A DNA stretch of 64,000 nucleotides, taken from IMG/VR virus record IMGVR_UViG_3300045988_183453. The stretch is one strand, 5' to 3'. The position numbers were made by a program, and so were the translations under genes. The stretch is from a virus. Under the pieces are notes generated by a model that was given only the letters and a program-made list of their open reading frames with translations, was not told the DNA's origin and did no database searches. Within the stretch, counting starts at the first letter, position 1, and each line of letters opens with the position of its first letter. Positions 30,626 through 63,393 of the stretch are shown piece after piece.

Positions 30626-30645
30626 CTGTGCGAACTTCGTACAAT
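30626..30645 (+). promoter_or_regulatory. Motif promoter P1a (TTGCGC-N16-TACAAT, spacer CTGTGCGAACTTCG)
   Basis: ctgtgcgaacttcgtacaat. Confidence 0.55.
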
Positions 30646-30651
30646 AAGAAT

Positions 30652-30786
30652 TGTACAAGAGAAACGGCAAGAGACATTTGTAGTGATTATAGTTGGTCGC
30701 CACGAATCGATGCCGTGTCTGCTTGCGCATAATTACCTCTTTTCGAAGCCCACAGGTCATTCTCTCACCTGTGGGTTTTGTTTATT
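30652..30786 (+). ncRNA. Candidate short RNA (~135 nt) between P1a and a strong intrinsic terminator
   Basis: Terminator hairpin cccacaggtcattctctcacctgtggg (30748-30773) plus TTTTGTTTATT. No credible ORF with an RBS. Confidence 0.4.
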
Positions 30787-30794
30787 GCGGAATC

Positions 30795-30812
30795 GTGCGA
30801 ATTGCAGACAAT
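30795..30812 (+). promoter_or_regulatory. Motif promoter P1b (GTGCGAATTGCAGACAAT)
   Basis: TTGCGG-N16-GACAAT immediately after the terminator. Confidence 0.55.
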
Positions 30813-30883
30813 TAAAGACAGAGCGATTGTGAGATGGGGCGATACCGATGCAGTAGGGATGAGAATCTTAGCAGCTAAAAGAG

Positions 30884-30958
30884 TCAACAACCCCGCCTAA
30901 ACCGGTTCACCGGTTATAGACGGGGCTTGCGGGGTAACCCGTAAGCTCGGTTGATTAG
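30884..30958 (+). ncRNA. Conserved structured RNA-like module, copy A
   Basis: caacaaccccgcctaaaccggttcaccggttatagacggggcttgcggggtaacccgtaagctcggttgattagcc. Nested hairpin (ccccgcc[aaccggt-ttca-accggtt]ggcgggg) plus hairpin gcttgcgggg-taa-cccgtaagc. About 92% identical to 43118-43195. Confidence 0.45.
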
Positions 30959-31138
30959 CCTAAGTCTGCTGCTCCGGCGGCAGGAAACTACGTTGTGTAC
31001 TAATAATATAGGCACCTTATCCATGCTCCACAAGTGGTGAGCTCTGCAGGCGTTTCGTTAAACATCTCCGAGGGGAGGAGAAGTGCGAGCGTCATGTCGA
31101 AAGGCTAAAACAGTGCATAACATTGGCGAAGTGGACCA

Positions 31139-31178
31139 CAGGACGCAAGTCCTGACTTATAGTTTTATTACTATTTTA
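31139..31178 (+). terminator. Possible leader terminator before the flotillin gene
   Basis: caggac-GCAA-gtcctg hairpin followed by a U-rich tract (acttatagttttattactatttta). Weak. Confidence 0.35.
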
Positions 31179-31198
31179 CGAATGGAGAAACAAAAATT

Positions 31199-32842
31199 AT
31201 GGTATATGTGATTGGAATTGTAGCAGCCCTGATTATTCTCTTTGGATTTCTCTGCTACAAGAAAGCTCCGCCCACGGAGGCTATCGTTGTAACTGGCTTT
31301 GGCCTGTCTAAGCCTAAAGTGGTTTGCGGAAAGGGTACATTTGTTCTGCCCGTTCTTCAACGGGCTGACCGACTGAATATGCGCCTTTTGAAAATCGATG
31401 TCAAGACTCCTGAAACAGGTGTTAAGACGAAGAACGGCGTAAGTCTCTGGATTGACTCTGTTGTCACGATTCAAGTCTACAGCGAAAACTCTACCGTTCT
31501 GGATGAAGAAGTGAAGGCATCCGGTCTGAAAGACGCCAAGGCGTACATCATGTCCCGACAACAGGCAGCCATCTCGAACTTTCTGGGCATGAACGAGCAG
31601 GGCATCAATGAGAAAGTTAATGACGTTCTGCAGGGCAATTTGCGTGAGATTGTCTCTGACATGACCGTTGACCAAATTCTGACGAACCGCAAGCAGATGG
31701 CTGTGAGCGTTATCGAGAATGCTCGCCCCGACCTTGCTAAGATGGGACTTGAGGTCGTGACTTTTAATGTCCAGGACATCAGGGATGCAGTGGATGTTCA
31801 AGGCCACAATCACGGCGTTATCGAAGCTATCGGCATTGAACAGGAAGAGCTTGTGAAAAAACAGGCTGAAATTGCCCGTGCTCAGGCTGCCCGTGATGTA
31901 GCCTGCGCGAAGGCCGATGCTGAGATGGCTGCAAATGCCAAGGAAGTTGAAGCGCAGACTGCGATTGCAAAACGCAACAATGAATTGCAGCTCGCCAAGG
32001 CAAAGCTGAAAGCTGAAGCTGATAAAGCTGCGGCTGACGCAGATGCTGCCGGTCAGATTCAGATGAATCTCCGCGCCAAAGAAATCAAAGAAGCGGAAGC
32101 GGATGCTGAAATCGCCAAGCAGAAGAAAATGGTAGACCTTGCCGCACAGGAAGCCGAGGTCCAGCAACGCAAACTGGATGCGGAAGTCCGCAAACAGGCA
32201 GATGCTGACCTGTACCGCCGCCAGAAAGAGGCAGAAGCCAAGAAATATGAGGCGGAACGTGCAGCTGAGGCACAGAAGTTCTCCAAGCAGCAGGAAGCAG
32301 AAGGCATTGAGCTTGTCGGTAAGGCAGAAGCTGAAGCGATTCGTCAGAAAGGCTTGGCTGAAGCGGAAGCCATGAAACAGAAAGCAGAGGCATATAAGCA
32401 GTATAACGATGCGGCTGTGGCTGAAATGCTCATCAAGGTTCTTCCTGACATTGCCAAGAGCGTGGCTCAGCCTTTGTCCAGCATTGATAAGGTTTCTATC
32501 ATTGGCGGTGATGCCTCCGGCGTATCCGGCGTTTCCGGGAACGTTCCTATCCTGATGGCTCAAACCATGCAGACGGTGAAAGAAGCGACCGGCATTGACA
32601 TGGGCGAAATTGTCCGTGCCAACAGCATCCAGGCAAAGACAGACCGCAACATCAACATTATGACTCAATGTGAACAGCCTGAGAATAACAAAGAGAAAGG
32701 AGGTGCCAAGGCAATGGAACGCGTAGAAGGCGGCTATCTGATTCATGAGAAGAATCTCAACGGTGAGGAAGTCACTCATTTTCGACCGGATGTGACCGAA
32801 GAAGAGAAGGCTATCATGAAAGACAAAAAGGCCAAAGATTAA
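31199..32842 (+). CDS. Flotillin-like SPFH/band-7 protein (FloT/YuaG-like)
   Basis: N-terminal TM, SPFH domain, long Ala/Glu-rich coiled coil (AEAEAIRQKGLAEAEAMKQKAEAYKQY); 547 aa. Confidence 0.85.
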   Translation: MVYVIGIVAALIILFGFLCYKKAPPTEAIVVTGFGLSKPKVVCGKGTFVLPVLQRADRLNMRLLKIDVKTPETGVKTKNGVSLWIDSVVTIQVYSENSTVLDEEVKASGLKDAKAYIMSRQQAAISNFLGMNEQGINEKVNDVLQGNLREIVSDMTVDQILTNRKQMAVSVIENARPDLAKMGLEVVTFNVQDIRDAVDVQGHNHGVIEAIGIEQEELVKKQAEIARAQAARDVACAKADAEMAANAKEVEAQTAIAKRNNELQLAKAKLKAEADKAAADADAAGQIQMNLRAKEIKEAEADAEIAKQKKMVDLAAQEAEVQQRKLDAEVRKQADADLYRRQKEAEAKKYEAERAAEAQKFSKQQEAEGIELVGKAEAEAIRQKGLAEAEAMKQKAEAYKQYNDAAVAEMLIKVLPDIAKSVAQPLSSIDKVSIIGGDASGVSGVSGNVPILMAQTMQTVKEATGIDMGEIVRANSIQAKTDRNINIMTQCEQPENNKEKGGAKAMERVEGGYLIHEKNLNGEEVTHFRPDVTEEEKAIMKDKKAKD

Positions 32843-32970
32843 AGACAACATGAAAAGAGGGTGACTCGAAAGAGCCATCCTTTTTTCTGTTGTGACGCAA
32901 ACGAAAAGTTCATGGTAGCCATCCAATTTGGGTAACTGTCTTTTTTGCATGTTAAGGCTTTGTTGCTGAA

Positions 32971-32989
32971 TTGTGCGAATTGAAGATAA
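32971..32989 (+). promoter_or_regulatory. Motif promoter P2 (TGTGCGAATTGAAGATAAT)
   Basis: TTGCTG-N16-GATAAT. Confidence 0.55.
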
Positions 32990-33044
32990 TTAAAAACAAA
33001 AGATGCTTTGTATCAAATCGATTGAAACCGAAGAGGTGAAGTTA

Positions 33045-33848
33045 ATGCTCGGCGTGAGTTTGATTATCATAGCAGCGGCTATAGTCTACATGGTCGAAAC
33101 CTATATCAGCACCTATTACACTATCGAATACATGCACGGAACATCGCTGTTCCTTATCCTCCTTGCGAAATATGGCACGCCAGTCCTGTTCCTGCTGCTC
33201 TGCGCCTACATTGCATATCGCAATTTCCTCAAAAAGCAGAAAGCTGCGGCTTCTGCTGCATCTGAACGGCCTACAAGCAAAGAAGAGCTGTATACCAACA
33301 AAATTCAAACGGCAGTAAAGACAAAAAGCGTCTTCTCAGAGCAGGCTGACCAAATGCTGTATCAGGTACGGCGCTTCGGGCAAAAAATGGCCGTTGCCTA
33401 CAGCATGACCCAGGATAGCAAGACATCCGGGGAACAAGCCAAGTGCCTAACGTTATTGGAATCCGCAGAACGTATCTTCTATGACCGACTGGATGACGCG
33501 ATTCGCTCGGCTTCAATGTTTGATGAAACGGAATACAAGGCTTTCTGTCAAGGCTCTATCTCGTTTGGAAACAAAGAAGAAGCGCAGAAAAAGAAAGAAA
33601 TCTACAATGGTATCGTAAGTACCGTGGATAAGGTAGTTCATGACAATGAGCGCTTAATCCTCCGATTAGATTCTTTAGCATACGCTCTGAACCAACGTTC
33701 TGCCCAGAATCCGTGGGATACAGAGGTTGTGCTCGCAATGTCAAAGCTCGATGCTGTCATTAACAAGACGACGCAGGATATTGAACAGGATGAAGATATC
33801 AGTCGTGAGGCTATGAAACGATATAACAACTTGAAAGGAGAAATTTAA
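33045..33848 (+). CDS. Membrane protein (3 TM) with soluble C-terminal domain
   Basis: Start MLGVSLIIIAAAIVYM with RBS GAGGTG (the track start 33003 lies in the promoter). Adjacent to the flotillin gene. Confidence 0.5.
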   Translation: MLGVSLIIIAAAIVYMVETYISTYYTIEYMHGTSLFLILLAKYGTPVLFLLLCAYIAYRNFLKKQKAAASAASERPTSKEELYTNKIQTAVKTKSVFSEQADQMLYQVRRFGQKMAVAYSMTQDSKTSGEQAKCLTLLESAERIFYDRLDDAIRSASMFDETEYKAFCQGSISFGNKEEAQKKKEIYNGIVSTVDKVVHDNERLILRLDSLAYALNQRSAQNPWDTEVVLAMSKLDAVINKTTQDIEQDEDISREAMKRYNNLKGEI

Positions 33849-33849
33849 C

Positions 33850-35544
33850 GTGACAAAAAAGAACATTTTCCCTGTAGTTGCAACCATCGCCGTGGTGGGT
33901 GTTGTTCTCGGAGTATTTTCGATGACGGTGATGAGGGACTCGAATGTCAGCATCAGCACGATGACTTCCGAGCAGGCATATGCCAACTTGAGCAGCAAGA
34001 TGAAACGTATCGGGGTGCAGGAAGTATCCGTCAATCCGCAGCAGCTTGATGTATCGGAGTTTCTGGACGCAAAGGATGAACTGCCCGACATTGAATCCTC
34101 CTACCCATTCGTGGTGGAGGGGAACGGTGATGTCAACATTGAAGTCTTCTCTTCCGGCGAGAAAGCAGCAGAATCCGGCTCCGATTCTTTCCTGACAAGC
34201 ATGGCAAAAAAGTTCAATGCCCAGCACAACAAGACTTCCGGAGACAAGACTATGAGTGTCTCCCTGCGCTCCGTTCCGTCCGGTACGGCGGCTGAGTACA
34301 TCTCGACGGGAAAGTATCAGCCCGAGTGCTATACCCCCTCAAATACGCTCTTTGGCGAGCTGGTGAAGAACGAGGGCGTAGAATTGACCGTTGAGGCTGA
34401 CCGTCTGGTCGGCAATGTGGCGGGTATTCTCGTATCAAAGAAGACAGGGGATATGCTTCGCTCTGAATACGGTGAAGCGTCTGTTTCTTCCGTTCTGAAC
34501 GCAACCATCGATGGCAAACTCATGATGGGGTATTCCAACCCATATACCAGCGCAACTGGTCTTAACTTCCTGCTTGCTGCATTGGCAAGCAGCGGCAGCG
34601 ATACGATTGTCGATACGGCTGCTGTTGAGAATTTCCAGAAATTTCAAGCGAACGTCCCTCTCGTATCCTTCACGACCCAGCAGATGGTCCAGTCGGCTGA
34701 CAAGGGTATCGTGGACGGTGTCGTGATGGAGTACCAGTCTTATCAGAATGACCCGACCTTGCAGCGCAACTACGAGTTCATCCCGTTCGGTGTGCGGCAT
34801 GATAACCCCCTGTATTCTATTGGAAGCATCTCGGCCGAAAAGAAGGAAGTTATTGCTGCGTTCGTTTCCCTCTGCGCCCAGAATCAGGCAGAAGCGACGA
34901 AGGACGGGTTCAATGGTCTTGACGACTATGCTTATACAGGCAAGGCATACGACGGCAACACCATCGCACAGGCTCAGAGTGTCTGGAAAGAAGAGAAGGA
35001 TTCCGGTATTCCTATTGTGGCAGAGTTCGTTGTCGATACTTCCGGCTCGATGCGCGGCGAACCCCTGAATGCCCTGAAAACCGCGATGATAAACACCATC
35101 CAGTATATCAATGACGACAACTATATCGGCATCATTGGCTTTGATTCAGATGTCAGGGAATACCTGCCCATTGACCAGTTCTCTCTGACCCAGAAAACTC
35201 TGTATAAGGGTGCCGTGAACTCCCTCGATGCGAACGGCAGCACCGCAATGTACAACGGTCTTTGCGTTGCTATGGACCGCATCTACCAGAAATCTCAGGA
35301 ACTGGGTGGGAATTGCACGCTCATCATCTTTGTGCTCACGGACGGTGACAACAATACCGGATATGGCTTCTCCGATACGAAGAACATCATTGCCGGTATG
35401 GATATCCCCATTTACACCATCAGCTACAACTACGCAGCGGATAGTCTTTCGGAGCTCGCTTCCATCAACGAAGCGGCAGCTATCGTTGGTAACAGCGAGG
35501 ATATCACCTACAAGCTCCGCAACCTGTTTAACGCAGAGATGTAA
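33850..35544 (+). CDS. Membrane-anchored protein with C-terminal von Willebrand factor A (vWA) domain
   Basis: N-terminal TM; MIDAS-like VVDTSGSMRGEPL and the LTDGDNNTG motif. Confidence 0.7.
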   Translation: MTKKNIFPVVATIAVVGVVLGVFSMTVMRDSNVSISTMTSEQAYANLSSKMKRIGVQEVSVNPQQLDVSEFLDAKDELPDIESSYPFVVEGNGDVNIEVFSSGEKAAESGSDSFLTSMAKKFNAQHNKTSGDKTMSVSLRSVPSGTAAEYISTGKYQPECYTPSNTLFGELVKNEGVELTVEADRLVGNVAGILVSKKTGDMLRSEYGEASVSSVLNATIDGKLMMGYSNPYTSATGLNFLLAALASSGSDTIVDTAAVENFQKFQANVPLVSFTTQQMVQSADKGIVDGVVMEYQSYQNDPTLQRNYEFIPFGVRHDNPLYSIGSISAEKKEVIAAFVSLCAQNQAEATKDGFNGLDDYAYTGKAYDGNTIAQAQSVWKEEKDSGIPIVAEFVVDTSGSMRGEPLNALKTAMINTIQYINDDNYIGIIGFDSDVREYLPIDQFSLTQKTLYKGAVNSLDANGSTAMYNGLCVAMDRIYQKSQELGGNCTLIIFVLTDGDNNTGYGFSDTKNIIAGMDIPIYTISYNYAADSLSELASINEAAAIVGNSEDITYKLRNLFNAEM

Positions 35545-35815
35545 CTCAAAAGCGCGGTTTTGTCCGCGCAGCTGCTCCAAAAGACAGCCTCCACACGGCG
35601 AGCAGCGGGAACATGCTGGTCGGAAACGGCACGGTCGGCAGCTACCAGTGCCACTCGATGAATGAGGCGGTCGATATGGTCGCCGCCTTGTACAATGGCA
35701 GAAAAACAGAAGCAGCGCAAGCATAACCATTCTGCAAAAATATATGCCGTTCACCTTTTTGGGTGGACGGCTTTTTGTTTTGTGAATACAGCGATTCAGT
35801 GGCGAAGCGAGCCGA

Positions 35816-35860
35816 TTTTACCAGCAGTTTGATATTCTGCGGCATGATTTCCAGCAGTTT
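35816..35860 (+). repeat. Direct repeats ACCAGCAGTTTGATAYTCTG, two copies with a third at 42008-42030
   Basis: ccagcagtttgatattctgcgg … ccagcagtttgatactctgtgg; compare ccagcactttgatattttgtgg at 42010. Confidence 0.5.
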
Positions 35861-35884
35861 GATACTCTGTGGGCAGTTGCACAG

Positions 35885-35904
35885 CCGTGCAAATTGCATA
35901 CAAT
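35885..35904 (+). promoter_or_regulatory. Motif promoter P13 (CCGTGCAAATTGCATACAAT)
   Basis: TTGCAC-N16-TACAAT, followed by a ~340-nt leader before gene 36248. Confidence 0.5.
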
Positions 35905-38413: not shown

Positions 38414-38474
38414 TATGCATGGCAGGTTCTTTTCGGAGCCTGCCTTCTTATTTCGCAAAAATAGTTGCCCATTT

Positions 38475-38493
38475 GTGCGAATTGCAGACAATC
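38475..38493 (+). promoter_or_regulatory. Motif promoter P3 (TGTGCGAATTGCAGACAAT) with a structured ~125-nt leader
   Basis: TTGCCC-N16-GACAAT. The leader has hairpins cccacgatttcaatcgtggg and ccgcatacaaggcagcgagttatgcgg. Confidence 0.55.
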
Positions 38494-38866: not shown

Positions 38867-38996
38867 TCATTTAAAGAAAGGAGTAGCAGGGTATTTGTGC
38901 TAACTGAGTACACTTCAAATTGCCTCTTGGTTAGCGCATTCCTCACCGCCTAAGTCGCAAGCGACTATAGACGGTGTACCCTGCGCACATAATTTG

Positions 38997-39635: not shown

Positions 39636-39676
39636 CTCCGATAACTGGTATTCACAGACAATATCATGTTGCGAAA

Positions 39677-39696
39677 CTGTGCGAATCGCAGACAAT
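39677..39696 (+). promoter_or_regulatory. Motif promoter P4 (CTGTGCGAATCGCAGACAAT)
   Basis: TTGCGA-N16-GACAAT. Confidence 0.55.
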
Positions 39697-41216: not shown

Positions 41217-41234
41217 TGGCGGTGAGGGTGAATC

Positions 41235-41942: not shown

Positions 41943-42089
41943 AAAAGGCGGTAAACAAATGCAAGAGGCGGGAGTCCCGGGTTTGTTGGTTCCAGAACGT
42001 CTTCTCACCTTAATTTTACCAGCACTTTGATATTTTGTGGTTATTGACAAACGGCGCAAAAGGTGCTTGAGTTAAAAGCCATTGCAAAA

Positions 42090-42109
42090 AAGTGCGATAT
42101 CCATATAAT
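42090..42109 (+). promoter_or_regulatory. Degenerate motif promoter P14 (AAGTGCGATATCCATATAAT)
   Basis: TTGCAA-N16-TATAAT. The upstream repeat ccagcactttgatattttgtgg matches the 35816 repeats. Confidence 0.45.
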
Positions 42110-42748: not shown

Positions 42749-42823
42749 GAAATTTTTTCCCGTGTGAGCAGTGACGCTCATGCGGGAATTTTTTGTAATT
42801 TTCTATTGTCAATCTGTGCGAAT

Positions 42824-42843
42824 TGCGTACAATGAAAAATATA
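42824..42843 (+). promoter_or_regulatory. Motif promoter P5 (CTGTGCGAATTGCGTACAAT)
   Basis: TTGTCA-N16-TACAAT. Confidence 0.6.
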
Positions 42844-44505: not shown

Positions 44506-44707
44506 TGCTTGCAATGCATTGCGGGTTCCATATAATTAAAACCGTAATCAAAAAGAACTATCTTTTGCGAGGACTCCGTTGCCGACGGTGTTCTCGTTTT
44601 CTTTTTTCAAGACAAAAGGCTGCCGCCCAGTAATGGGTAGCAGCCTTCTTTTTTTTGATTGTGTCAGCCAATATGGCAGCAAATCACCTTACCGCGTTCA
44701 GAACGAT

Positions 44708-46594
44708 TCACTGCACAATCTCGCCAAGGTCGTTTGCATATTTCGGGCCACACATCATGAAGTAGTTGACGGGGCCGTACTCCAGACCGAGCTCCTGCGC
44801 GTATGCCTTGATAGCTTCCAGAACGTCCTCTTTCTTGAGGCCAAACTTGGAATGCAGACGGGCAAACTCTTTGTCAGAGACAGAAACGCAAGAGCAATTT
44901 TCTGCATCGGTTTCTTTGCTGCCCAGCATCCCGTCAAAGATGTCCTGCCCTGCACAGAGAATCGTCTCATTGTTCATCGCATAGGCGATAACGGAAGCCT
45001 TACAGTCAAAGTCGCTGTCTTCCACAAGGAAATCCTCAGGGCGGCCGTGACGCTCAACAACGTTTTCATAGATGTCCCGGAGTTCGATAGGAGCAGAAGG
45101 AGCGGTCAGAGCTGCTTTATGAAGGCGCATGAATTCCACAAACTTTTCATTCGAGAGGGTATCGGTATAAAAGCCGATGCCGGAAACGCGAACCTTCACT
45201 TCGCTGGCAAAGTAATCGTCAATTTTGGAAACGATTTTCTGCTGGACCCGCTTGTATGCTTCCTGAACATTGGAAGCCGTGTAAAATACCGGGAACTTCA
45301 TGATGTCGATTCCCTCCGGCAGACTCGCGTCATAGGCCGCATCAATGCCACCTCGCAGCGCCGGAACCGCGTCATGCAGCTCTTTCACAGAAGAAATGTA
45401 TCCGGTAATGTACAGCTCATCGTTTTTGCTGTAATGCCCGATAAGTCCCACATAGAGGGTCTGCATCAGCATCCGCTTGAAGCTGAACCAACAAAGACGA
45501 ATGGGTAGAATGACATTAGCAGCCGTACCTTCCGCACGATAGGTGCCGGGGGCAGAGACCTTTTCCAGCAGAATCTGGTCGTTCTTGTCACCGTATTTTT
45601 CCTTGAAAAGAGCTTGAAGAATTTCAGTGGACGAAAGAGGAGTGGACATTGGAATCGTTTCATTCAGAAAAGAGAGGAATGCATCCACGTTGTCTTTCTG
45701 CCATGCGTCATCAGACATGCTTGCACGCTGCATAGAGAGCTTGTCTTTCCCGTCGTCAGGCAAGGGCTTATACCCACAGGCGATACGAAGCTCGTTCTCC
45801 GTGACAGCATCCGTTGCGCTTGCAATTTTCTTGATGGTATTTTCGGTCGGCTGAGCTTTTGCGTTGCCATTCACGAGGCTGCTGATATACCCACGAGTCA
45901 GTCCTGCCTGAAACGCAAACTTACCCTGTGTTCGGGTTCCGATGGCTTTTTTGACCAGCGATGCCAGCCTTTGAAAGTCGGGCTCTTTGGGAAAGGTGGC
46001 CTCCGTATCCTTATTGCTGTTCTTTTCAAGTACCGACTTGTCCCAACCGGTGACAAGAGAATACCCAATATCCCTCAAGGATTGATAGGCAACCCCATTC
46101 TGGTCAAGAGCCGGGGAGTATGTACCGCTGTTATCTTCCAGCTGCTCTACTGCGTCACGCACCATCCTTGCTTCGTTCATCAGGATGACGTCCGGGGCTT
46201 CAAGCCGGGCAAGACTCTTGTACCGATTATTGAGGCGCTCGACTCGTGCGGCCAATGCAGTGATGTTGGCAACTTGGTCTTCCGTTGCATGGGCAGAGAT
46301 ATCTGCACCAAGTTCAAAATGGTTCAGTGCAGGAATATCCACGCCTTTGCTCTTGGCGAATTCCACAATGGCTTCCGCGCCATAGAAACGCTTCTCATGG
46401 GCTGCGACAACTTTCGTTATCGTGTCGGCCGAGTTGTCCAGCTCAAGCACTTCACCTTTTCCGGCATCCTCGACATAACACCTGGCGTTGGTGAGAAAGC
46501 CTTTCAAAAAATCAGCATCCACATCCAGCTTCTTAGCGATGCCGGGCAGCTGCTTATAGAAAATCACGGGCGTGGCGAGGTTAACAGAAATCAT
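44708..46594 (-). CDS. Large protein with central XRE-type HTH (628 aa)
   Basis: Central GLTRGYISSLVNGNAKAQPTENTIKKIASATDAVTENELRIACGY, an HTH_XRE pattern. The flanking domains are unassigned. Confidence 0.55.
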   Translation of the reverse strand: MISVNLATPVIFYKQLPGIAKKLDVDADFLKGFLTNARCYVEDAGKGEVLELDNSADTITKVVAAHEKRFYGAEAIVEFAKSKGVDIPALNHFELGADISAHATEDQVANITALAARVERLNNRYKSLARLEAPDVILMNEARMVRDAVEQLEDNSGTYSPALDQNGVAYQSLRDIGYSLVTGWDKSVLEKNSNKDTEATFPKEPDFQRLASLVKKAIGTRTQGKFAFQAGLTRGYISSLVNGNAKAQPTENTIKKIASATDAVTENELRIACGYKPLPDDGKDKLSMQRASMSDDAWQKDNVDAFLSFLNETIPMSTPLSSTEILQALFKEKYGDKNDQILLEKVSAPGTYRAEGTAANVILPIRLCWFSFKRMLMQTLYVGLIGHYSKNDELYITGYISSVKELHDAVPALRGGIDAAYDASLPEGIDIMKFPVFYTASNVQEAYKRVQQKIVSKIDDYFASEVKVRVSGIGFYTDTLSNEKFVEFMRLHKAALTAPSAPIELRDIYENVVERHGRPEDFLVEDSDFDCKASVIAYAMNNETILCAGQDIFDGMLGSKETDAENCSCVSVSDKEFARLHSKFGLKKEDVLEAIKAYAQELGLEYGPVNYFMMCGPKYANDLGEIVQ

Positions 46595-46837
46595 GGTGTA
46601 CTCCTTTCAAACGTGTCATTTACTGTACAAAACTGTCATCTTATGTAATTATAATAGCACATCTCGCACTAAAAAGCAAGCGCTAATTTACAACAAATGA
46701 CAATAAAACACACAAGATGACATATTTGAGCAAAGCGATTGATTCTTGAGCTTTCCGGCTTGGTGACAGAACAAGCTCTATGCGCCTTGTCTTTACCACA
46801 ATTTTGCCACAGTTTTGCCTTGTGCATCCGTGCAAAT

Positions 46838-46857
46838 TGAATGCAATTAAAGATGTC
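46838..46857 (+). promoter_or_regulatory. Variant motif promoter P6 (CCGTGCAAATTGAATGCAAT)
   Basis: TTGTGC-N16-TGCAAT, in the divergent region between 44708..46594(-) and 46897(+). Confidence 0.45.
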
Positions 46858-47340: not shown

Positions 47341-47352
47341 ACTTGACCTGAT

Positions 47353-47370
47353 GTGCGAATTTTATACAAT
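47353..47370 (+). promoter_or_regulatory. Motif promoter P7 (TGTGCGAATTTTATACAAT)
   Basis: TTGACC-N16-TACAAT. Confidence 0.55.
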
Positions 47371-47376: not shown

Positions 47377-47455
47377 TGTACGAGAGATACTATTCACACA
47401 ATAGGATTCACACGAAGCTGCTCGGGAGCCGTATGGCTGCTGGGTGGCTTTTTCT
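47377..47455 (+). ncRNA. Candidate short RNA (~80 nt) from P7, ending in a T-run terminator
   Basis: Contains AGATACTA…ATAGGATTCACA, shared with the leader at 54915-54965. 3' end …GGGTGGCTTTTTCTTTT. Confidence 0.4.
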
Positions 47456-47458
47456 TTT

Positions 47459-47477
47459 GTGCGAGTTGCGTACAATA
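47459..47477 (+). promoter_or_regulatory. Motif promoter P8 (TGTGCGAGTTGCGTACAAT)
   Basis: Directly after the P7 RNA terminator; weak -35. Confidence 0.5.
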
Positions 47478-49564: not shown

Positions 49565-49688
49565 AGCGGAACACCAACGACAACAACCATTAAGGCTGTA
49601 CAAGATTATGCGCTCATTCGCAAGTCGCGGGTGGGCGTTCTTTTTTGCCCAAAAAACAAAAATAAACATAGTAAAAAGCCTTGCACAT

Positions 49689-49708
49689 CTGTGCGAATCA
49701 GATATAAT
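49689..49708 (+). promoter_or_regulatory. Motif promoter P9 (CTGTGCGAATCAGATATAAT)
   Basis: TTGCAC-N16-TATAAT. Confidence 0.6.
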
Positions 49709-54885: not shown

Positions 54886-54895
54886 CGCTTGCCAA

Positions 54896-54913
54896 AATAT
54901 ACGAACGCCGTAC
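54896..54913 (+). promoter_or_regulatory. Degenerate motif promoter P10 (ATACGAACGCCGTACAAT)
   Basis: TTGCCA-N16-TACAAT. Confidence 0.5.
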
Positions 54914-54969
54914 AATGTAAAGTGTGAACAGATACTAAGCAATCAGTAGGATTCACAATCTGTATTTTA

Positions 54970-55008
54970 AGCGGACTTATCCCATCACGGGGTAGGTCCG
55001 CTTTTTTT
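54970..55008 (+). terminator. Leader terminator before the MBL-fold lipoprotein gene
   Basis: agcggacttatcccatcacggggtaggtccgct followed by TTTTTTTG. The leader shares AGATACTA…TAGGATTCACA with the 47377 RNA. Confidence 0.6.
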
Positions 55009-55026
55009 GTTGAAAGGAGAAAAAGT

Positions 55027-56594: not shown

Positions 56595-58028
56595 ATGACT
56601 GAAACAAAAGACATGTTTGAACAAATCAGCGCCATCTTAACCGATAAGAAAGATAAGCCGTTTTCCTATGAGGAGCTTGCAGCAATGCTCAAAACTGACC
56701 CTGATGCCCTCAAAACCTTTGATGAGGTCTATAAGACACAGGTTCTTGAAAGCGGAGAGCTGCATGAAAATATGCTCCAGTGGGATACAGCTACAGTCAA
56801 AGCAATTCTCGACAAAAAGGTCTACTTCCCACCGGAACTCAATTCGCTCATTGACCGCATCGTCACAGAACTGGTGCTTGAAACGCGTCTGTACATCTAC
56901 AACGCGGAACGCGGTGGCTATTATGTGACATACTCTGCCAACCGCGACTTTATGACAGAGGTTACAAACGAGGAGTTGAAACGCTACCCCGAAGAACTCC
57001 GTCCGCAGCTCACCGGAAAGTTGATGAAGATTGACATTTCTGAGCCGTCGTACAAGGAACTGCTTCAAAACTACGCAGGCTACAAGAATGCAAAGAACGA
57101 CAGCACAAAAATGTTTTACTACAACATGTTCCGTCAAGGTCTTGACATCCTCGACCTTGATGACTTCACTTATCAGATGCTTGAGATGAACCCCAACTCT
57201 ATGGGCTTCTGGTTTCCTCCTCTGGTAGAGGGATTGTACGGCAGCGCATTTTTCAAGGTTCCGGACACAAAAATTCTTCGCGTACCTATCACCATGCTGC
57301 AGCTTACCCGCCTTGGTTTCGAGACGTTGAATCCCGTTACAAAGGAAATCGTGAACCGTTATTGCCAGAAAGTCTTCCATCTTGATGGATACGAAGACTA
57401 TTTTATCAAAACGGGCACGTATTCTTCCAAATACGAATTCCGCAACGCTCATATCCATAACCCGAAGGAAATCAATGAGATGGGCGAGTATTTCTTGTTT
57501 TTGAATCATCTGACATGTTCGATGGCATCCCCTCTGAACAATCGCTGCTTCTACGGCGCGAACACCACGAACGAGTGGGTCGTCAGAGAATACATCAAGG
57601 ACAAAGAAAATAACCCCACCATCTACAACGGTTTGCCGCTGCACACTGAATATCGCGTGTTTGTGGATTTTGATACAAAGGAAATCCTTGGCGCAAGTCC
57701 TTATTGGCGCAGCGATGTTATGAAGAACGAATTCAAAAAAGTCAGCAGCCCACAGGAACGCCATGATTATGTTGTCTACAAGATGCATGAAGACATTCTG
57801 AACCAGCGTTACCACGAAAGCGTTCAAACTGTTCTGGCTGAGCTGAAGAAGGTTATTCCTCGCATTGAGTTGACAGGGCAGTGGAGCATCGATGTGATGC
57901 GCAATGGTGATGACTATTACATCATCGACATGGCTCTTGCTGAACACTCCGCTCTGAACGACTGCGTGCCAAAGAACCTGCTTCGAGCTTATCCGCAACA
58001 GTGGCTGCCGGGGGAATCGAATAGCTAA
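56595..58028 (+). CDS. Hypothetical protein, possible ATP-grasp fold
   Basis: C-terminal IELTGQWSIDVMRNGDDYYIIDMALAEHS resembles the ATP-grasp metal-binding loop; EYRVFVDF resembles the central strand motif. Weak. Confidence 0.4.
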   Translation: MTETKDMFEQISAILTDKKDKPFSYEELAAMLKTDPDALKTFDEVYKTQVLESGELHENMLQWDTATVKAILDKKVYFPPELNSLIDRIVTELVLETRLYIYNAERGGYYVTYSANRDFMTEVTNEELKRYPEELRPQLTGKLMKIDISEPSYKELLQNYAGYKNAKNDSTKMFYYNMFRQGLDILDLDDFTYQMLEMNPNSMGFWFPPLVEGLYGSAFFKVPDTKILRVPITMLQLTRLGFETLNPVTKEIVNRYCQKVFHLDGYEDYFIKTGTYSSKYEFRNAHIHNPKEINEMGEYFLFLNHLTCSMASPLNNRCFYGANTTNEWVVREYIKDKENNPTIYNGLPLHTEYRVFVDFDTKEILGASPYWRSDVMKNEFKKVSSPQERHDYVVYKMHEDILNQRYHESVQTVLAELKKVIPRIELTGQWSIDVMRNGDDYYIIDMALAEHSALNDCVPKNLLRAYPQQWLPGESNS

Positions 58029-58064
58029 CAACAACTGACTAATAACATTTCAGGAGGTAAAATT

Positions 58065-59144: not shown

Positions 59145-59301
59145 TAATCCTAGATATTTGTATCACTCATACAAGGCCGGAAAACTACTGGATTGATTTT
59201 CAAAAGCAATAGCAATCGAGACCACTGCCCCGAAAAGGGTAGTGGTCTTATTTTTTGCACAATACTTACCATAAATTACCAGAAAGAAAAACATTGTGCA
59301 T

Positions 59302-59321
59302 CTGTGCGAATTGCATATAAT
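59302..59321 (+). promoter_or_regulatory. Motif promoter P11 (CTGTGCGAATTGCATATAAT)
   Basis: TTGTGC-N16-TATAAT. Confidence 0.6.
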
Positions 59322-59433: not shown

Positions 59434-59961
59434 ATGTCAAACAAAGAGGAACGCATGAACCGCAATAAAAGCATCATCGAAGATTACAAAAATGGAAAGC
59501 CGATTTTAGAAATCGCGAGGGAATATAATCTTTCAGAAACGATGTGCTACAAGATTCTAAAAGGTACGCAGGAGCCGCCCCGTTATTTTGAAAAAAAGAG
59601 GAAGAGACTTACCACTCGAAATGAGCAGATTGTTAAACAGTATAAAGGCGGTATGACGGCCAGAGAATTGGGCAAGATGTACGGCATTTCCATGCAGCGT
59701 ATTTATGCAATCTTGCATTCGAGCGGAGAGTACGAAAGCCAAAAATACAATCATATTGAAACGACTCTCAAAAAAGAGAAAAAGATGCGGAACCAAACTT
59801 TTCTTGATGCTTACAAGAAAAATCCTCGAAAATCGATTATCGAGTTGAGCAGGGAGGTAAATATCAGCCCTTCACTAGGTTACCTTATCCTTCATCAAAA
59901 TGGGATTTACCAGTATAACGTAAAAGCCAGAGCTAAGGAGAATAGCGAAAATGCCGATTAA
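59434..59961 (+). CDS. Tandem HTH-repeat protein (3 repeats)
   Basis: Three ~50-aa repeats of the pattern Y(K/E)xGx(S/T)xxEIAxEYxISxxxxYxIL, resolvase/sigma-region-4-like HTHs. Confidence 0.6.
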   Translation: MSNKEERMNRNKSIIEDYKNGKPILEIAREYNLSETMCYKILKGTQEPPRYFEKKRKRLTTRNEQIVKQYKGGMTARELGKMYGISMQRIYAILHSSGEYESQKYNHIETTLKKEKKMRNQTFLDAYKKNPRKSIIELSREVNISPSLGYLILHQNGIYQYNVKARAKENSENAD

Positions 59962-60469
59962 CAAGATTACCCACATGTGTCTAACTCATGACAAAGTCAG
60001 AGCACGAAATGAAAAGATGCTGGAGGATGCCAAGGACGGTATGTCCCAGGAACAGCTGGCCGAAAAGTATCAAATTTGTGTTTCTACTGTCCGATATAGT
60101 CTGAAGGACTTTTACAAAGAACAGGCCCGGCAGAGGAAAGCAAAGAAGAAAGCCTGGCAAACCCAGATGATTCATGAATATGAGATGGGCGCAAAATCTC
60201 CGGAGCTCCAGGAAAAATACGGCATCAGTGGAACGCTCTTTTATCGGATTCTTCATGCGCATGGAAAGAATGGCCGACAAATCCACAGCCAAAACCGTAT
60301 CGAGACTGGCAAGAAAAGAAACGCCGAGATGGTCAGGAAATACAAAAACGGCGTTTCTGTCAAAGAGCTTGCGGAAGAATACGGGCTCAAAAAGGGAAGC
60401 GTATATCGCGCCATGAAGCGGTATAGTCCAGGCCCAGGGAAAAGTAAAAGTTGTCAAAGCGAGGAATAA
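59951..60469 (+). CDS. Tandem HTH-repeat protein (3 repeats), paralog
   Basis: DAKDGMSQEQLAEKYQICVSTVRYSL; EYEMGAKSPELQEKYGISGTLFYRIL; KYKNGVSVKELAEEYGLKKGSVYRAM. Overlaps the upstream gene. Confidence 0.6.
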   Translation: MPINKITHMCLTHDKVRARNEKMLEDAKDGMSQEQLAEKYQICVSTVRYSLKDFYKEQARQRKAKKKAWQTQMIHEYEMGAKSPELQEKYGISGTLFYRILHAHGKNGRQIHSQNRIETGKKRNAEMVRKYKNGVSVKELAEEYGLKKGSVYRAMKRYSPGPGKSKSCQSEE

Positions 60470-60473
60470 TTGC

Positions 60474-61427
60474 ATGGCTGCATCAAAGAAAGATGTTGCG
60501 AAGCAGCAGGTCAAAGAAGACCGCGAAAAGGTTCGGGAAATGTATCTTTCTGGCAAAACTGTCAAGGAAATCGCCAAGGAAACGTATTTTTCAAGCTCTT
60601 ATTGCTATGCCATGGTGAGAGACCTAGCAAAAGAAAAGAATCTTGCAAAGAAAGCAAAAAGAGCACCTCTCGACGAAGCTATGATTCAAGATGCGAAAGC
60701 CGGGATGACGGTTGCTGAAATCGCAAAGAAGCATGGCGTGACCTATCAGCAGTGCTACTATACTGTTTCTGAATACGCTCAAGCTACGATTAAGAAGAAC
60801 AAGAAAAAGCAGTCTGCTGCCACGAAAGTTCGCAATGCGGCTATGTTGGAAGATGCGAAAGCCGGAATGACTGATAAGGAAATCGCCAAAAAATACTTTT
60901 TGTCTCGAAGCAGTGTCCGTACCGTCCTTGCAGGGCATTTACATACAAATTCCAAAAAGTTGGATGAAAGGCGCAAGGCGATTCTTGCGGATTATGAGGC
61001 AGGAACGTCCTCAAAAGACATCTGTGAAAAATACGGTATTTCAAAATCCACTCTTTACAAGGACATACGCCAAATTGGAAAAACCTGTCAGGAATACTAT
61101 CACAAGGCGCTGAAAGACAAGACCAATCAAAGGAATTCCGATATTCGAAGCAAAATCGAAAGAGGGGTCTCGGTCAGCACTATTGCCAAGGAATACGGAA
61201 TCTCTAAAACGGCGATTTATGAAACGTTTCATCAGGAAAATGTCAGAGCTGGAATTTTACAGAAACGCGGCCGTCCGCGAAAAAACACGGAACGTAATGC
61301 ACTGATTGCTAAACGCCACAGGGAAGGCGAGAAGGTGCAGGCGCTTGCCACTGAATATAATCTCTCTGTTTCGACGGTAAACACTATTTGCAGTAGAAAC
61401 AAAAATCAGAATATAACCTCATATTAA
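60474..61427 (+). CDS. Tandem HTH-repeat protein (6 repeats), paralog
   Basis: Six repeats (…DAKAGMTVAEIAKKHGVTYQQCYY…, …DYEAGTSSKDICEKYGISKSTLYKDI…, etc.). Confidence 0.65.
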   Translation: MAASKKDVAKQQVKEDREKVREMYLSGKTVKEIAKETYFSSSYCYAMVRDLAKEKNLAKKAKRAPLDEAMIQDAKAGMTVAEIAKKHGVTYQQCYYTVSEYAQATIKKNKKKQSAATKVRNAAMLEDAKAGMTDKEIAKKYFLSRSSVRTVLAGHLHTNSKKLDERRKAILADYEAGTSSKDICEKYGISKSTLYKDIRQIGKTCQEYYHKALKDKTNQRNSDIRSKIERGVSVSTIAKEYGISKTAIYETFHQENVRAGILQKRGRPRKNTERNALIAKRHREGEKVQALATEYNLSVSTVNTICSRNKNQNITSY

Positions 61428-61430
61428 CAG

Positions 61431-61460
61431 GCTGCCATTTGGCGGCCTATTTCTTTTTTA
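61431..61460 (+). terminator. Rho-independent terminator
   Basis: ggctgcc-attt-ggcggcc followed by TATTTCTTTTTT. Confidence 0.6.
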
Positions 61461-61472
61461 GGAGGAAATGAA

Positions 61473-62387
61473 ATGACAGACGACGTACGTAATTTAATTC
61501 GATTTGTGGTGGATGGCGATATTCGAAACGCGCAGACTCAGTGTCGAATCATGCTTGAAAAGAATGTACCCGAAAAGGACGCCAGGTTCAAAGAAAACGA
61601 ACTCAGAAAGTTGAATCTTCTGAAACCGGAACTGATTCAGCTGCCCGCCAACCTGGAAAACCTCTTGATTGCGGAGGATGCCACGAATTTCCCTGAGAGC
61701 CGGTTCCTGCTCCGCGAGGAGGAAGAAACAGTCATCAACAAGCTCTTGGCCACCAGAAAAGCAGCTTTAGCCATCAAGGAGCTTGGCATCCACTATACTT
61801 GCTCTTTGCTTTTGACGGGCCTTCCTGGTGTTGGTAAGACTGAATTGGCCCGCTACATTGCACACAAGGCGAATTTACCGTTTGTTTTCCTGAAATTTTC
61901 TGGCCTTGTCAATTCTGCTCTTGGCCGGACACAGCAGAACATCGGCAGAGTGTTCGATTACGCAAAGCGCACGCCTTGTGTTCTTTGTGTTGATGAAATT
62001 GATGCCATCGGAATGTGCCGTGGCAGCCGCGATGATGTCGCTGAAATGAGCCGCGTCACCATCGCATTGATGCAGGAACTTGACCGGCTCCCGAATGACG
62101 TCATTCTCATTGGCACTACAAACCGCGTCGATAACCTTGACGAAGCCCTCATTCGCCGATTCACTTTCAAACACCGCGTCAAGCCTTTAGGCGACGATGA
62201 TATGAAAGAACTGTGCAAGAAGTTCCTTGCTTCGGCAGACTATCCCTTCACGGAATCCGAACTCGACGAACTCTGCCATTCGCTGCGTGAACAGCGGACT
62301 GCCAGCGCCGCTGTCAATGCCTGTACAGAACGTATCGTTACACATATCGTATCGCAGCTGCCTGAAAATTCGGCAGATGCCGTGTAA
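61473..62387 (+). CDS. AAA+ family ATPase
   Basis: Walker A LLLTGLPGVGKTELA, Walker B VLCVDEIDAI, sensor-1 IGTTNR, and arginine finger region LIRRFTF. Confidence 0.8.
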   Translation: MTDDVRNLIRFVVDGDIRNAQTQCRIMLEKNVPEKDARFKENELRKLNLLKPELIQLPANLENLLIAEDATNFPESRFLLREEEETVINKLLATRKAALAIKELGIHYTCSLLLTGLPGVGKTELARYIAHKANLPFVFLKFSGLVNSALGRTQQNIGRVFDYAKRTPCVLCVDEIDAIGMCRGSRDDVAEMSRVTIALMQELDRLPNDVILIGTTNRVDNLDEALIRRFTFKHRVKPLGDDDMKELCKKFLASADYPFTESELDELCHSLREQRTASAAVNACTERIVTHIVSQLPENSADAV

Positions 62388-62427
62388 AAGTATGATAGCC
62401 TGGGAAGAAAGCCCTCGTCAGTTTAAG

Positions 62428-63090
62428 ATGTCCAAGCAACTCGATGAGGGAAAATTCGGAGAAGACTTGGCTCGCAAATTCCTTAACGACCCGATTATCA
62501 AAGTGAATCATGGCATTAGCCATTACGATGACGTGACTCAGGATAAATCATATCAAGACAAAGATACCGATTTCATTGTCTGGAAGAAGAATGGTAAGAC
62601 CTTTGGCCTGGAAGCGAAAGTGGACAGTCACAATACCGGAAATTTCTACCTGGAAACCTCGGTGGACTACTTCTCCATGGTGCCTGACGCTCTGAACGAA
62701 CAGCGGGTAGCGCGGCGGTATCGGGATGGCATCGACCCTTTATGGCACACCCCGGGCTGGGTATACAGGAGTGGTGCGGACCAGATTCTCTATTATTTCA
62801 GAACCACGCAGCTGCTTTACATTTTCTCCCGCGTTGATGTCTGGTTCTATGCTGAAAAGCTGATGCGCGGTGGAATTCATCTCGACCCCGGAATCAGAAA
62901 GCCAAAAATGTATTCTGCCGAAAATATCAGTGAACGCAATGGTTCCACTCTCTTCTTTGCCAACGGCTTATGCGTGAATGCTGAGCAGACATACAAGGCT
63001 TTAGGGGCGCAAAAAAGAGTCATTAAATACCAGGTTGAGAACCCGAATTCAGACGTCCCAACGTTCAGCTTTTGCCCTTTCAAATTATGA
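62428..63090 (+). CDS. Hypothetical protein with PD-(D/E)xK-like nuclease motif
   Basis: DKDTDFIVWKKNGKTFGLEAKVD is a D…(E)xK arrangement. The start is ambiguous (62377, 62392 or 62428), overlapping or adjacent to the AAA gene. Confidence 0.45.
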   Translation: MSKQLDEGKFGEDLARKFLNDPIIKVNHGISHYDDVTQDKSYQDKDTDFIVWKKNGKTFGLEAKVDSHNTGNFYLETSVDYFSMVPDALNEQRVARRYRDGIDPLWHTPGWVYRSGADQILYYFRTTQLLYIFSRVDVWFYAEKLMRGGIHLDPGIRKPKMYSAENISERNGSTLFFANGLCVNAEQTYKALGAQKRVIKYQVENPNSDVPTFSFCPFKL

Positions 63091-63171
63091 ATTTTCCGCT
63101 AACAATCGACAAAAAATCACATTTCAGTTCAGCGGAAGAGTATAATTGTAGTAGAAAGAGAGGAAAAAAGC

Positions 63172-63294
63172 ATGAACCAAATCAACGTTGTCACGATTGG
63201 GAAACTCATTGAAGCGCATCGTGGAGGTGACGAGCAGAAGTTCAAAACTCACGTCGATTTTATAAAAACAAGCCGGGAAAACCCACGACTTTAG
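63172..63294 (+). CDS. Possible small ORF (40 aa)
   Basis: RBS GAGAGGAAAAAAG with an upstream TATAAT. Ends inside the hairpin cccacgactttagtcgtggg. Confidence 0.25.
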   Translation: MNQINVVTIGKLIEAHRGGDEQKFKTHVDFIKTSRENPRL

Positions 63295-63373
63295 TCGTGG
63301 GATGAAAGGCGTTAAGAACGAATCAATTCACGCTGCATATCCGCAAGATGGACAGCATTTTTTTGCTGTCAAA

Positions 63374-63393
63374 GCGTGCGAATTGCGTACCAT
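63374..63393 (+). promoter_or_regulatory. Motif promoter P12 (GCGTGCGAATTGCGTACCAT) directly upstream of tnpB
   Basis: 17 of 19 identical to P5; the tnpB RBS AAAGGAGG follows. Confidence 0.55.

Follow-up and report, generated by a model that had tools for sequence, protein, structure and literature searches.

Boxes that recur at the promoters or operators of a single mobile element have clear precedents, and boxes lying inside the promoters themselves are well known from plasmid and phage regulons, such as the operators of KorA/KorB (IncP) and ArdK (IncW and IncN) and the Q-binding element of phage lambda. In this manuscript, we describe a box of this kind in a 64,000-nucleotide (nt) stretch of DNA, the IMG/VR virus record IMGVR_UViG_3300045988_183453, and we use the term window to refer to the whole of that stretch. 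A sequence-only reading of the window had drawn attention to a motif, TGTGCGAATTGCrTACAAT, in the spacers of promoters in its distal half, and had called a conserved spacer unusual; given the systems just named, that description is overstated. What is new is the asymmetric, register-locked box inside the spacer, its presence in about 180 distinct promoters, the element that hosts it, and an adjoining regulator gene whose product is built in part like the clamp of RNA polymerase.

The closest described systems are the networks of KorA/KorB (IncP-1) and of ArdK, StbA and KorA (IncW plasmid R388 and IncN plasmid pKM101), in which one short box likewise occurs at many promoters of one plasmid. Genes for establishment, anti-restriction and maintenance are coordinated in this way, and those for the regulators lie under the same box too. 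The window is similar in the number of promoters involved (13 strong copies in 33 kb) and in having candidate regulators behind box-bearing promoters. However, the KorA/KorB and ArdK operators are palindromes or iterons, variable in position and bound by known repressors, whereas the motif, although it contains an 11-bp near-palindrome, is conserved asymmetrically, keeps a single register in its ∼180 distinct promoters, and belongs to promoters that look weak.

Several phage systems are also comparable. The middle promoters of T4 (MotA box), the Pm and late promoters of Mu (Mor/C) and the late promoters of P2 (Ogr) combine a -10 element having A-11 and T-7 with an element-specific box, but these boxes replace the -35 element or sit upstream, whereas the motif promoters keep a -35 TTG and their conservation peaks at -24 to -18. 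The Q-binding element of lambda PR' lies between -35 and -10, as the box does, and some motif copies have a promoter-proximal terminator; it is, however, a single site per phage, as opposed to dozens here, and most motif copies have no leader terminator. The gp71 stoperators of mycobacteriophage L5 are asymmetric boxes of ∼13 bp, present in dozens of copies in short intergenic regions and in one orientation with respect to transcription, but they lie within transcription units, act independently of promoters and block elongation, while the strong motif copies are fused to -35 and -10 elements. Finally, the Frpo-type single-strand promoters of plasmid leading regions resemble the motif promoters in preceding unidirectional arrays of anti-defence-type genes; they consist of long hairpins in the transferred strand, whereas the eight motif regions tested have no hairpin in common.

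Motif copies in the window

With up to three mismatches allowed, the 19-mer has 11 matches in the window, 11/11 on the + strand, compared with a mean of 0.06 and a maximum of 2 in dinucleotide-preserving shuffles. Its 11-mer core, GTGCGAATTGC, has 10 matches with at most one mismatch (1.9 expected). The two largest families from a blind, independent repeat finder, D1 (13 copies) and D2 (8 copies), correspond to these sites. The motif family is thus borne out by the shuffle comparison as well as by independent recovery, and its density is far above that of shuffled sequence.

An iterated weight-matrix scan yields 13 strong copies between 30.6 and 63.4 kb and approximately six degenerate ones. 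The TGTGCG of the strong copies starts at positions 30627, 30794, 32972, 35886, 38474, 39678, 42815, 46829, 47352, 47458, 49690, 59303 and 63375, and weak or partly degenerate matrix copies lie at 12931, 24271, 42082, 44509 and 54889 (+) and at 21231 (-). For the strong copies, the positions listed in the sequence-only reading are within 1-9 nt, with 42824 and 46838 falling inside the copies at 42815 and 46829. Its sites at 42090 (beginning AAGTGCGATATCC) and 54896 (beginning TATACGAACGCC) are present, but only as degenerate copies, and the two that it had itself called degenerate (12939 and 24280) receive the same grade in the matrix scan. Weak sites at 44518 (+), at 21231 (-) and in the minus-strand promoter of an XRE-type regulator gene (46679-46651, with GTGCGAG) were absent from its list. 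That nearly every + strand transcription unit of the distal half has a copy proved too generous: a strong copy is found at about 12-13 of the roughly 20 units between 30.6 and 64 kb, and there is none in the gaps of the window before 43475, 48545, 52622, 53716, 56595 and 61473.

The copies are placed as promoters would be. Non-coding DNA makes up 14% of the window, yet it holds 16 of the 17 motif sites. Most copies lie 20-110 nt 5' of an open reading frame (ORF) with a Shine-Dalgarno sequence, and several are found directly 3' of strong + strand terminators. Free GTGCGAA heptamers occur in the window at roughly chance frequency, and all of the strong copies carry -35 and -10 elements.

Anatomy and register of the 28-base unit

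The full unit, cTTGC-N6-yGTGCGAA-TTGC-r-(T/G)AyAAT, is 28 bases long and has a spacer rigid at 16 nt. This agrees with the geometry that had been proposed from the sequence: the promoters have the form TTGnnn-N16-(T/G)AyAAT, and GTGCGAATTGC occupies about -24 to -14, one base 5' of the -10 hexamer. The near-invariant parts are the -35 TTG, the GTGCGAA heptamer (about -24 to -18), A-11 and T-7; the TTGC at -17 to -14 is about 75-80% conserved. The N6 that follows the -35 TTGC and the flanks vary freely, while the box positions are invariant. With TTG in 100/104 or better, A-11 and T-7 in 103-104/104 and a spacer of 16 nt throughout, the units have the features of sigma70/sigmaA-type promoters.

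The register was counted in 293 unique GTGCGAA contexts from 2.0 Mb of DNA (the window plus relatives). A -10-like hexamer lies exactly 5 nt 3' of the heptamer in 198 of these, as opposed to only 13 at an offset of 6 nt; TTG lies exactly 10 nt 5' of the heptamer in 187, and TTG and -10 are both in register in 182. The spacer is therefore always 16 nt, and promoter-like strings with 17-nt spacers almost never bear the box. Positions -15/-14 are GC in 132 of the 182 in-register copies and TG in none, so that the extended -10 (TGn) feature is lacking. At -12, G replaces T in 37% of copies (GATAAT or GACAAT). There is a second peak of -10-like hexamers at offsets of 11 and 12 nt (47 and 44 of the 293 contexts), and in approximately 45 contexts a second -10-like hexamer begins 6-7 nt after the first (e.g., TACAATAAGAAT and GACAATCAGAAT).

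Internal symmetry is limited. The unit contains three (T/G)TGC tetrads with start-to-start spacings of 10 and 7 bp. Within the box, 11 bp (TGCGAATTGCA) come close to a palindrome, and in the two GTGCAAA variants, at 35886 and 46829, the symmetry is exact (TGCAAATTGCA). A longer dyad of 17 bp, TGTGCGAA-T-TGCATACA, reaches into the -10 hexamer, with the conserved C of TAcAAT pairing with G2 of TGTG, but only 5 of its 8 pairs match (chance probability ∼0.03). Operators of the MerR type consist of a dyad within an over-long spacer of 19-20 nt; here the spacer is 16 nt in every copy and the dyad is weak. The sigma54 pattern, with GG at -24 and GC at -12 in TGGCAC-N5-TTGC spacing and no TATAAT-like -10, differs as well, since here only 3 nt separate GTGC from TTGC and TAyAAT is conserved. 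In a comparison by eye, the consensus sequences of sigma54, sigmaH, sigmaE/K, sigmaI, extracytoplasmic function (ECF) sigma factors, LexA (Cheo box), cre, Rex and Spo0A all fail to fit in register.

Conservation in other elements

Strict-pattern scans were made of three collections, namely 185,579 species genomes, metagenomes and IMG/VR. Among the species genomes, the box is found on a single Firmicute contig, a 224-kb contig of a Clostridiales metagenome-assembled genome with 3 loci and 5 copies on one strand. At the DNA level this contig does not resemble the window, although one of its proteins is a homologue of a window protein at 46% identity. The remaining matches, one copy each in cyanobacteria and several further phyla, we consider unrelated, and the box is the chromosomal regulon of none of the species representatives. 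The cyanobacterial sequence, ATTG-N7-GTGCGAATTGCnGAyAATGG, is conserved as single copies across filamentous genera (Microcoleus, Nostoc, Oscillatoria and others; loci L001-L022 except L011, L017 and L020), and is probably an unrelated conserved site or a coding segment.

The metagenomes contain at least 120 loci with the box, the named records being mostly human-gut assemblies and many of the contigs 170-370 kb in length, and IMG/VR contains at least 120. The weight matrix has 267 + 270 matches in 1.9 Mb of relatives, and at all but 2 of the 243 loci scanned, every copy is on one strand. Approximately two thirds of the loci are mosaics related to the 20-64 kb part of the window, to which they are 85-98% identical. 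A set of 77 loci (596 kb) has no DNA similarity and common proteins that are only 26-64% identical, yet the box is identical; the -10 preference of these loci is somewhat different, GATAAT being the commonest. A matrix scan of related plasmid DNA, proposed as a check in the sequence-only reading, thus recovers the same box across diverged loci. Because this position-specific conservation spans diverged loci, the box is, on sequence grounds, functional and under selection, and not merely part of a copied cassette. An analysis of orthologous substitutions is consistent with constraint, but its signal is weak and biased by the way the loci were collected. A literature search for the motif sequence returned only PCR primers.

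The host element

A VirD4-type coupling protein and a VirB4-like ATPase are encoded in the window, which these genes mark as part of a Firmicute-type conjugative element. The closest plasmid matches to VirD4 come from Clostridium plasmids, at only ∼30% identity, and megablast against phage and plasmid collections gave no close match to the window. Its accessory genes form an array in one direction, with flotillin-like, VWA, PLD nuclease, NADAR and RlaP nucleotidyltransferase genes as well as genes for a UvrD-like helicase, a metallo-beta-lactamase-fold protein, an AAA ATPase and TnpB. The window lacks Rep and Par genes. A relaxase or oriT that would place the leading region was sought via Pfam and NCBIfam with no usable result; the HD ORF at 28929-29729, a MOBH-like relaxase candidate, has a weak Pfam score (E=0.0057) and no NCBIfam match.

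Motif-bearing relatives reach 389,222 bp, and among their products are a sortase, a protein of 2979 aa and Big_2 proteins. The human gut harbours conjugative megaplasmids, named Hodor, that have lengths of 211-389 kb (G1 at 47.1% G+C), encode VirB4/VirD4, sortases and giant surface proteins, frequently carry TnpB, and are often filed in viral databases (bioRxiv 2026, PMC12934698). The element described here has in common with them the human-gut source, a size of 200-390 kb, a G+C content of ∼47%, VirD4/VirB4, sortases, giant surface proteins, frequent TnpB, and a place in viral databases. Judged by this description, the window and its relatives are probably Hodor megaplasmids. The words "promoter", "sigma" and "RNA polymerase" have zero occurrences in the Hodor preprint (PMC12934698).

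Candidate readers of the box

An identical box in diverged loci makes a dedicated reader the natural inference, and to this extent the dedicated factor that had been suggested stands; the version in which it is a sigma factor is without support, none having been found in the DNA searched (the window and ∼2 Mb from motif-bearing relatives). Two other candidates had been named, a trio of tandem helix-turn-helix (HTH) proteins and an XRE-HTH protein, neither of which has a direct or a covariation link to the box.

The trio (59434..61427, +) consists of three adjacent paralogues with 3, 3 and 6 HTH_23/HTH_28/Mor/sigma-region-4-like repeats, and these proteins exceed the Pfam threshold for the Mor family. 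It occurs in this element family only, with an AAA ATPase gene always following it and a near-perfect copy of the box (1 mismatch in the window, among the closest) always preceding it.

The second candidate, which we call the XRE/clamp protein (628 aa; 44708..46594, -), is the product of the only large opposite-strand gene in the motif-rich half. It comprises an N-terminus resembling the RNA polymerase beta-prime clamp (aa ∼1-200), an XRE HTH (aa 222-269) and a C-terminal domain without assignment. The N-terminus has the clamp fold, the two clamp helices and similarity to beta-prime 264-321, and beta-prime-like residues are conserved in the family, which contains 452 clusters. The beta-prime clamp is the sigma-docking module of RNA polymerase. 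Of the family's equivalents of the three E. coli beta-prime residues that bind sigma70 region 2 (R275, E295 and A302), only that of E295 (E140) is invariant, while the other two vary. The HTH resembles those of the 434/P22 repressors, ImmR and C-proteins. Throughout the motif-bearing lineages examined, the gene of this protein is the lone one on the opposite strand, and it diverges from a motif promoter ∼230-300 bp away. In some relatives it has 4-6 orphan DNA methyltransferase genes beside it (L143, positions 1-5000; L146 and L147, positions 1500-9400), of the C5, N6 and N4/N6 types and including a type I M plus S pair. Such arrays are typical of the anti-restriction "early" regions.

Proposed mechanism and direction of control

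We tentatively propose that the motif promoters are a composite class of sigmaA promoters, activated by a plasmid-encoded DNA-binding factor at the box. In this proposal we infer a trans-acting factor, its encoding by the plasmid and its activating role. The host sigmaA RNA polymerase would supply the generic contacts, to the -35 TTG and to A-11 and T-7 of the -10 element, while a megaplasmid-encoded protein would read the position-locked asymmetric box (TTGC-N6-yGTGCGAA-TTGC, about -35 to -14) and, once bound, would aid the polymerase on promoters that are weak by themselves. A dozen or more terminator-bounded accessory cassettes would in this way be turned on together as one regulon, comprising nucleases, a helicase, a NADAR protein, TnpB, an omega-type RNA and regulators, and in relatives also the orphan DNA methylase arrays. 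The factor would most likely be the tandem-HTH trio or the XRE/clamp protein, and the multi-HTH build of the trio would suit three (T/G)TGC tetrads that are 10 and 7 bp apart.

Whether the factor activates or represses is judged from the quality of the promoters. The XRE/clamp gene's own promoters are canonical (TTGnnn, a 17-nt spacer, and TGnTATAAT or TATTAT), and serve as the example of a strong promoter in this system. Each departure of the motif promoters from these should weaken them: the spacer is one of 16 nt, TG is lacking, the third -10 position is C, and 37% of copies have G at -12. At two promoters (47449 and 63366), the box is retained although the -35 is lost. Since the promoters look weak, have no extended -10 and can keep the box without a -35, the comparison makes us lean towards a helper (an activator or a recruiting factor) over a repressor.

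Several points weigh against this. Promoter quality is the only basis for the direction of control, and the polymerase of the host may need no more than a -35 TTG and TAyAAT; the box would then be a repressor operator. It also overlaps the space of RNA polymerase, where repressors classically bind. As the sampling covers the motif-adjacent DNA of elements that measure 200-390 kb, the reader could be encoded elsewhere. With regard to the candidates, neither protein covaries with the box, and the recognition helix of the XRE HTH shows no clear pattern with box presence; homologues of the XRE/clamp protein with 44-46% identity occur in two short box-free contigs (3.9 and 8.8 kb). The third protein of the trio is shorter in a relative (264 aa vs 317 aa), i.e., the number of HTH repeats varies, which weakens the proposed match of three HTHs to three tetrads.

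Alternative explanations

The alternative that survives best is a global repressor, for which the divergent XRE/clamp protein is the obvious candidate. The promoters would then be sufficient for sigmaA by themselves, the box, possibly as a 17-bp pseudo-palindrome overlapping the -10, would be the operator, and the cassettes would be silent in established hosts and expressed in a burst after transfer. We consider this possible and nearly as likely as activation, because of the position of the box, the repressor-like divergent XRE gene, and the habit of plasmids (IncP, IncW, IncN) of silencing their genes. The box is situated between -35 and -10 and abuts the -10; the near-palindrome TGCGAATTGCA is perfect in the 35886 and 46829 copies, and the C of TAcAAT is paired in the dyad. 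The XRE gene is the lone divergent gene on the opposite strand and has an HTH like those of 434/P22 repressors, ImmR and C-proteins, its own promoter has GTGCGAG in the window and TTGCGAATTG in L143, and it is adjoined by the orphan methylase arrays in relatives; other plasmids express genes of this type transiently on entry. Yet conservation is strongly asymmetric, with the left half invariant and the right half ∼75%, and the dyad matches at 5/8 pairs. G at -12 in 37% of copies and the lack of a TG extension would be odd for promoters that need repression, the box persists at two promoters without a usable -35, and the window has no free-standing operator copies away from promoters. The recognition-helix residues differ among motif-bearing lineages, while the G2-like set (R,V,R) is the same as that of a homologue in a motif-free contig.

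It is considerably less probable that the 28-bp unit is the promoter of an alternative holoenzyme, with a dedicated sigma factor or specificity subunit encoded elsewhere on the 200-390 kb plasmid. The rigid register, in which -35, spacer and -10 are conserved as one unit, would suit such an enzyme, as would the atypical G/T at -12 and the conserved C in the -10, and only motif-adjacent DNA was sampled. An element-encoded sigma factor, as had been envisaged for the window, was not found: across the window and ∼2 Mb of motif-adjacent DNA from relatives, phmmer gives no RpoD-like ORF at E<=10, and among the Pfam families listed the sigma-related matches are only region-4-like HTH repeats. Sigma70_r2 is not among the families listed for individually scanned ORFs of the window and relatives, nor among 25 of the 64 families for 150 further ORFs. 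The motif is also unlike the sigma54, sigmaH, sigmaE, sigmaK, sigmaI and ECF consensus sequences, and its conservation peaks at -24 to -18, where sigma70-family proteins are not known from their structures to read bases.

Two further readings are each unlikely. In the first, the box is read by a regulator of the host, and the plasmid cargo is plugged into a host signalling pathway. Firmicute regulators do read boxes that contain CGAA, such as the Spo0A box, TGNCGAA, which resembles GTGCGAA. The two are out of register, however, and a host regulon should leave chromosomal copies, whereas a single Firmicute contig among the 185,579 genomes has the box, and this contig encodes the 46%-identical homologue of a window protein. 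In the second, which is a variant involving the XRE/clamp protein, box and -10 are read jointly by a complex of this protein with host sigmaA, working outside the core polymerase. The HTH would bind yGTGCGAAttgc and the pseudo-clamp would hold sigma region 2 over (T/G)AyAAT, and the complex would either hand sigma and promoter to the core (activation) or park sigma (repression). The fixed one-base gap between spacer box and -10 would follow from this arrangement.

An antiterminator loading site, like the Q-binding element in lambda PR', is very improbable. A factor would board the polymerase at the box, which is inside the spacer as in PR', and read through terminators, and a terminator is indeed found 25-100 nt downstream of 21 of 158 distinct motif promoters (in the window, 24271, 30618, 42806, 47343 and 54889); in addition, the clamp helices copied by the XRE/clamp protein are those that dock NusG/RfaH-type factors on the real polymerase. 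However, a leader terminator at only ∼13% of copies, a promoter of its own for every cassette, which makes read-through unnecessary, the absence of a conserved -10-like pause element from the transcribed leader, and the fact that no Q-like, NusG-like or ConAn-like gene was identified all argue otherwise. We give equally little credence to there being no reader at all, the similarity reflecting ancestry or gene conversion of a promoter cassette spread by recombination, perhaps at a cassette-shuffling hotspot. Mosaic breakpoints are enriched near the motif (14% within 40 nt of motif centres vs ∼3% expected), but this is due to the 38474 and 46829 copies and is no general rule, most breakpoints lie elsewhere, and the box is invariant while N6 and flanks are free and persists across 26-64% protein identity without DNA similarity. 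Single-strand hairpin promoters were excluded, as eight motif sites folded as DNA give only the flanking terminators.

Implications

These megaplasmids are present in thousands of samples from the human gut; to our knowledge, none of their hosts has been cultured and their regulation has not been described. The 28-bp promoter class marks accessory and anti-restriction cassettes and provides a handle for annotating transcription units, and the strict pattern, being almost exclusive to the family, recognises megaplasmid fragments in metagenomes. The promoter could also be used in reporters and for DNA-affinity capture of the regulator. If the factor is an activator inside the spacer, or a mimic of the polymerase clamp, mobile elements would prove to have a new means of redirecting the RNA polymerase of the host; with a repressor as the factor, the system would be a Gram-positive megaplasmid counterpart of the KorA/KorB and ArdK networks.

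Individual copies and neighbouring features

The strong copies are described here in order, by the coordinates of the 28-base unit; all are on the + strand. The unit at 30618..30645 (TTGCGCCGCTGTGCGAACTTCGTACAAT) has a leader of ∼130 nt with a terminator just before the next promoter. That next promoter (30785..30812) is ∼65 nt 5' of a HEARO RNA (30883-31141), with a flotillin-like gene at 31199, and the copy at 32963..32990 is 5' of the 33045-35544 operon (a protein without assigned function plus a VWA protein). The GTGCAAA variant at 35877..35904 has a terminator upstream (35746-35771) and is 5' of a PLD-nuclease-like gene (36248-38413). Just upstream of 38465..38492 is a terminator (38421-38444), and this copy is a frequent mosaic breakpoint among relatives. 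The promoter at 39669..39696 is 5' of the 39736-41942 operon. A perfect match at 42806..42833 is placed between an upstream terminator (42757-42788) and a leader terminator (42867-42893) that precedes the ORF at 42897.

The copy at 46820..46847 (GTGCAAATTGAATGCAAT) is divergent from the XRE/clamp gene and is predicted to drive 46897-47217. It is followed by 47343..47370, whose predicted transcript is terminated after ∼85 nt and is possibly a small RNA, and by 47449..47476, before 47501-48386, in which the T-run of a terminator stands in place of the -35 TTG and the box, GTGCGAGTTGCGTACAAT, is intact. The copy at 49681..49708 is 5' of the UvrD-like helicase gene (49789-52515), and that at 59294..59321, with 1 mismatch, is before the three tandem-HTH genes plus the AAA ATPase gene (59434-62387). 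The last, 63366..63393, combines a perfect box with a poor -35 and -10 (CTGTCA and TACCAT) and precedes the TnpB gene, which starts at 63430, runs to the window end at 64000 (+) and continues in L106 (4411-5532); its product has OrfB_IS605 plus Cas12f1-like TNB domains.

The weaker sites are more heterogeneous. Degenerate + strand copies are found at 24271..24298 (GGTGCGAATCGTATATAAT; no TTG at -35, leader terminator present), at 42082..42109 (TTGCAAAAAAGTGCGATATCCATATAAT; 5' of 42140-42748), at 54889..54916 (TTGCCAAAATATACGAACGCCGTACAAT; leader terminator, and 5' of a metallo-beta-lactamase-fold gene at 55027) and, in the transfer-gene half, at 12931..12959 (AAGTGCAATTTATGGTATAAT; 17-nt spacer). 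A promoter-like site with the 16-nt geometry at 44509..44536 (+), antisense to the XRE/clamp gene, has TTGCGGG replacing the box. On the minus strand, the weight matrix gives a weak copy at 21204..21231 (TTGCCGGGATATGCGAGCCAGATACAAT), and the promoter of the XRE/clamp gene (46651..46679), TTGCTT-N17-TATTAT with a TG extension, has GTGCGAG at the motif's distance from the -35.

Five of the motif promoters are followed by leaders that end in a terminator (24305-24380, 30652-30790, 42840-42900, 47377-47455 and 54923-55015). The leaders after 30627 and 47352 have (T)TGTACrAGAGAwAC in common, and those after 47352 and 54898 have AGGATTCACA. Such leaders could be small RNAs or attenuators.

The HEARO RNA is full-length (+ strand; IscB omega-RNA family, 96 bits), with no IscB/HNH gene alongside. 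A second HEARO copy, an 80-nt 5' fragment that is 94% identical, is found at 43109-43188 (+). Both copies are flanked by mosaic breakpoints in relatives, and RRXRR and HNH (IscB-type) proteins occur in other motif-bearing loci.

Long antisense ORFs on the minus strand mirror + strand genes nearly end to end (3670-5010, 31157-32950, 38943-39605, 42041-42781 and 56637-58034). These are probably composition artefacts, as the Pfam matches, where present, favour the + strand.

Finally, a number of short repeats lie near the promoters. A 28-nt repeat, ATTTTACCAGCAGTTTGATATTCTGCGG, is present as a tandem pair just 5' of the 35877 promoter (35815-35872) and singly just 5' of the 42082 promoter (42013-42040). 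The leader after the 24271 promoter contains a tandem repeat, (ACTTGCTAAGA)x3.7, at 24416-24456, and a 20-nt unit is repeated 1.9 times at 46609-46647, in the leader of the XRE/clamp gene; these two short tandem repeats might be binding sites.

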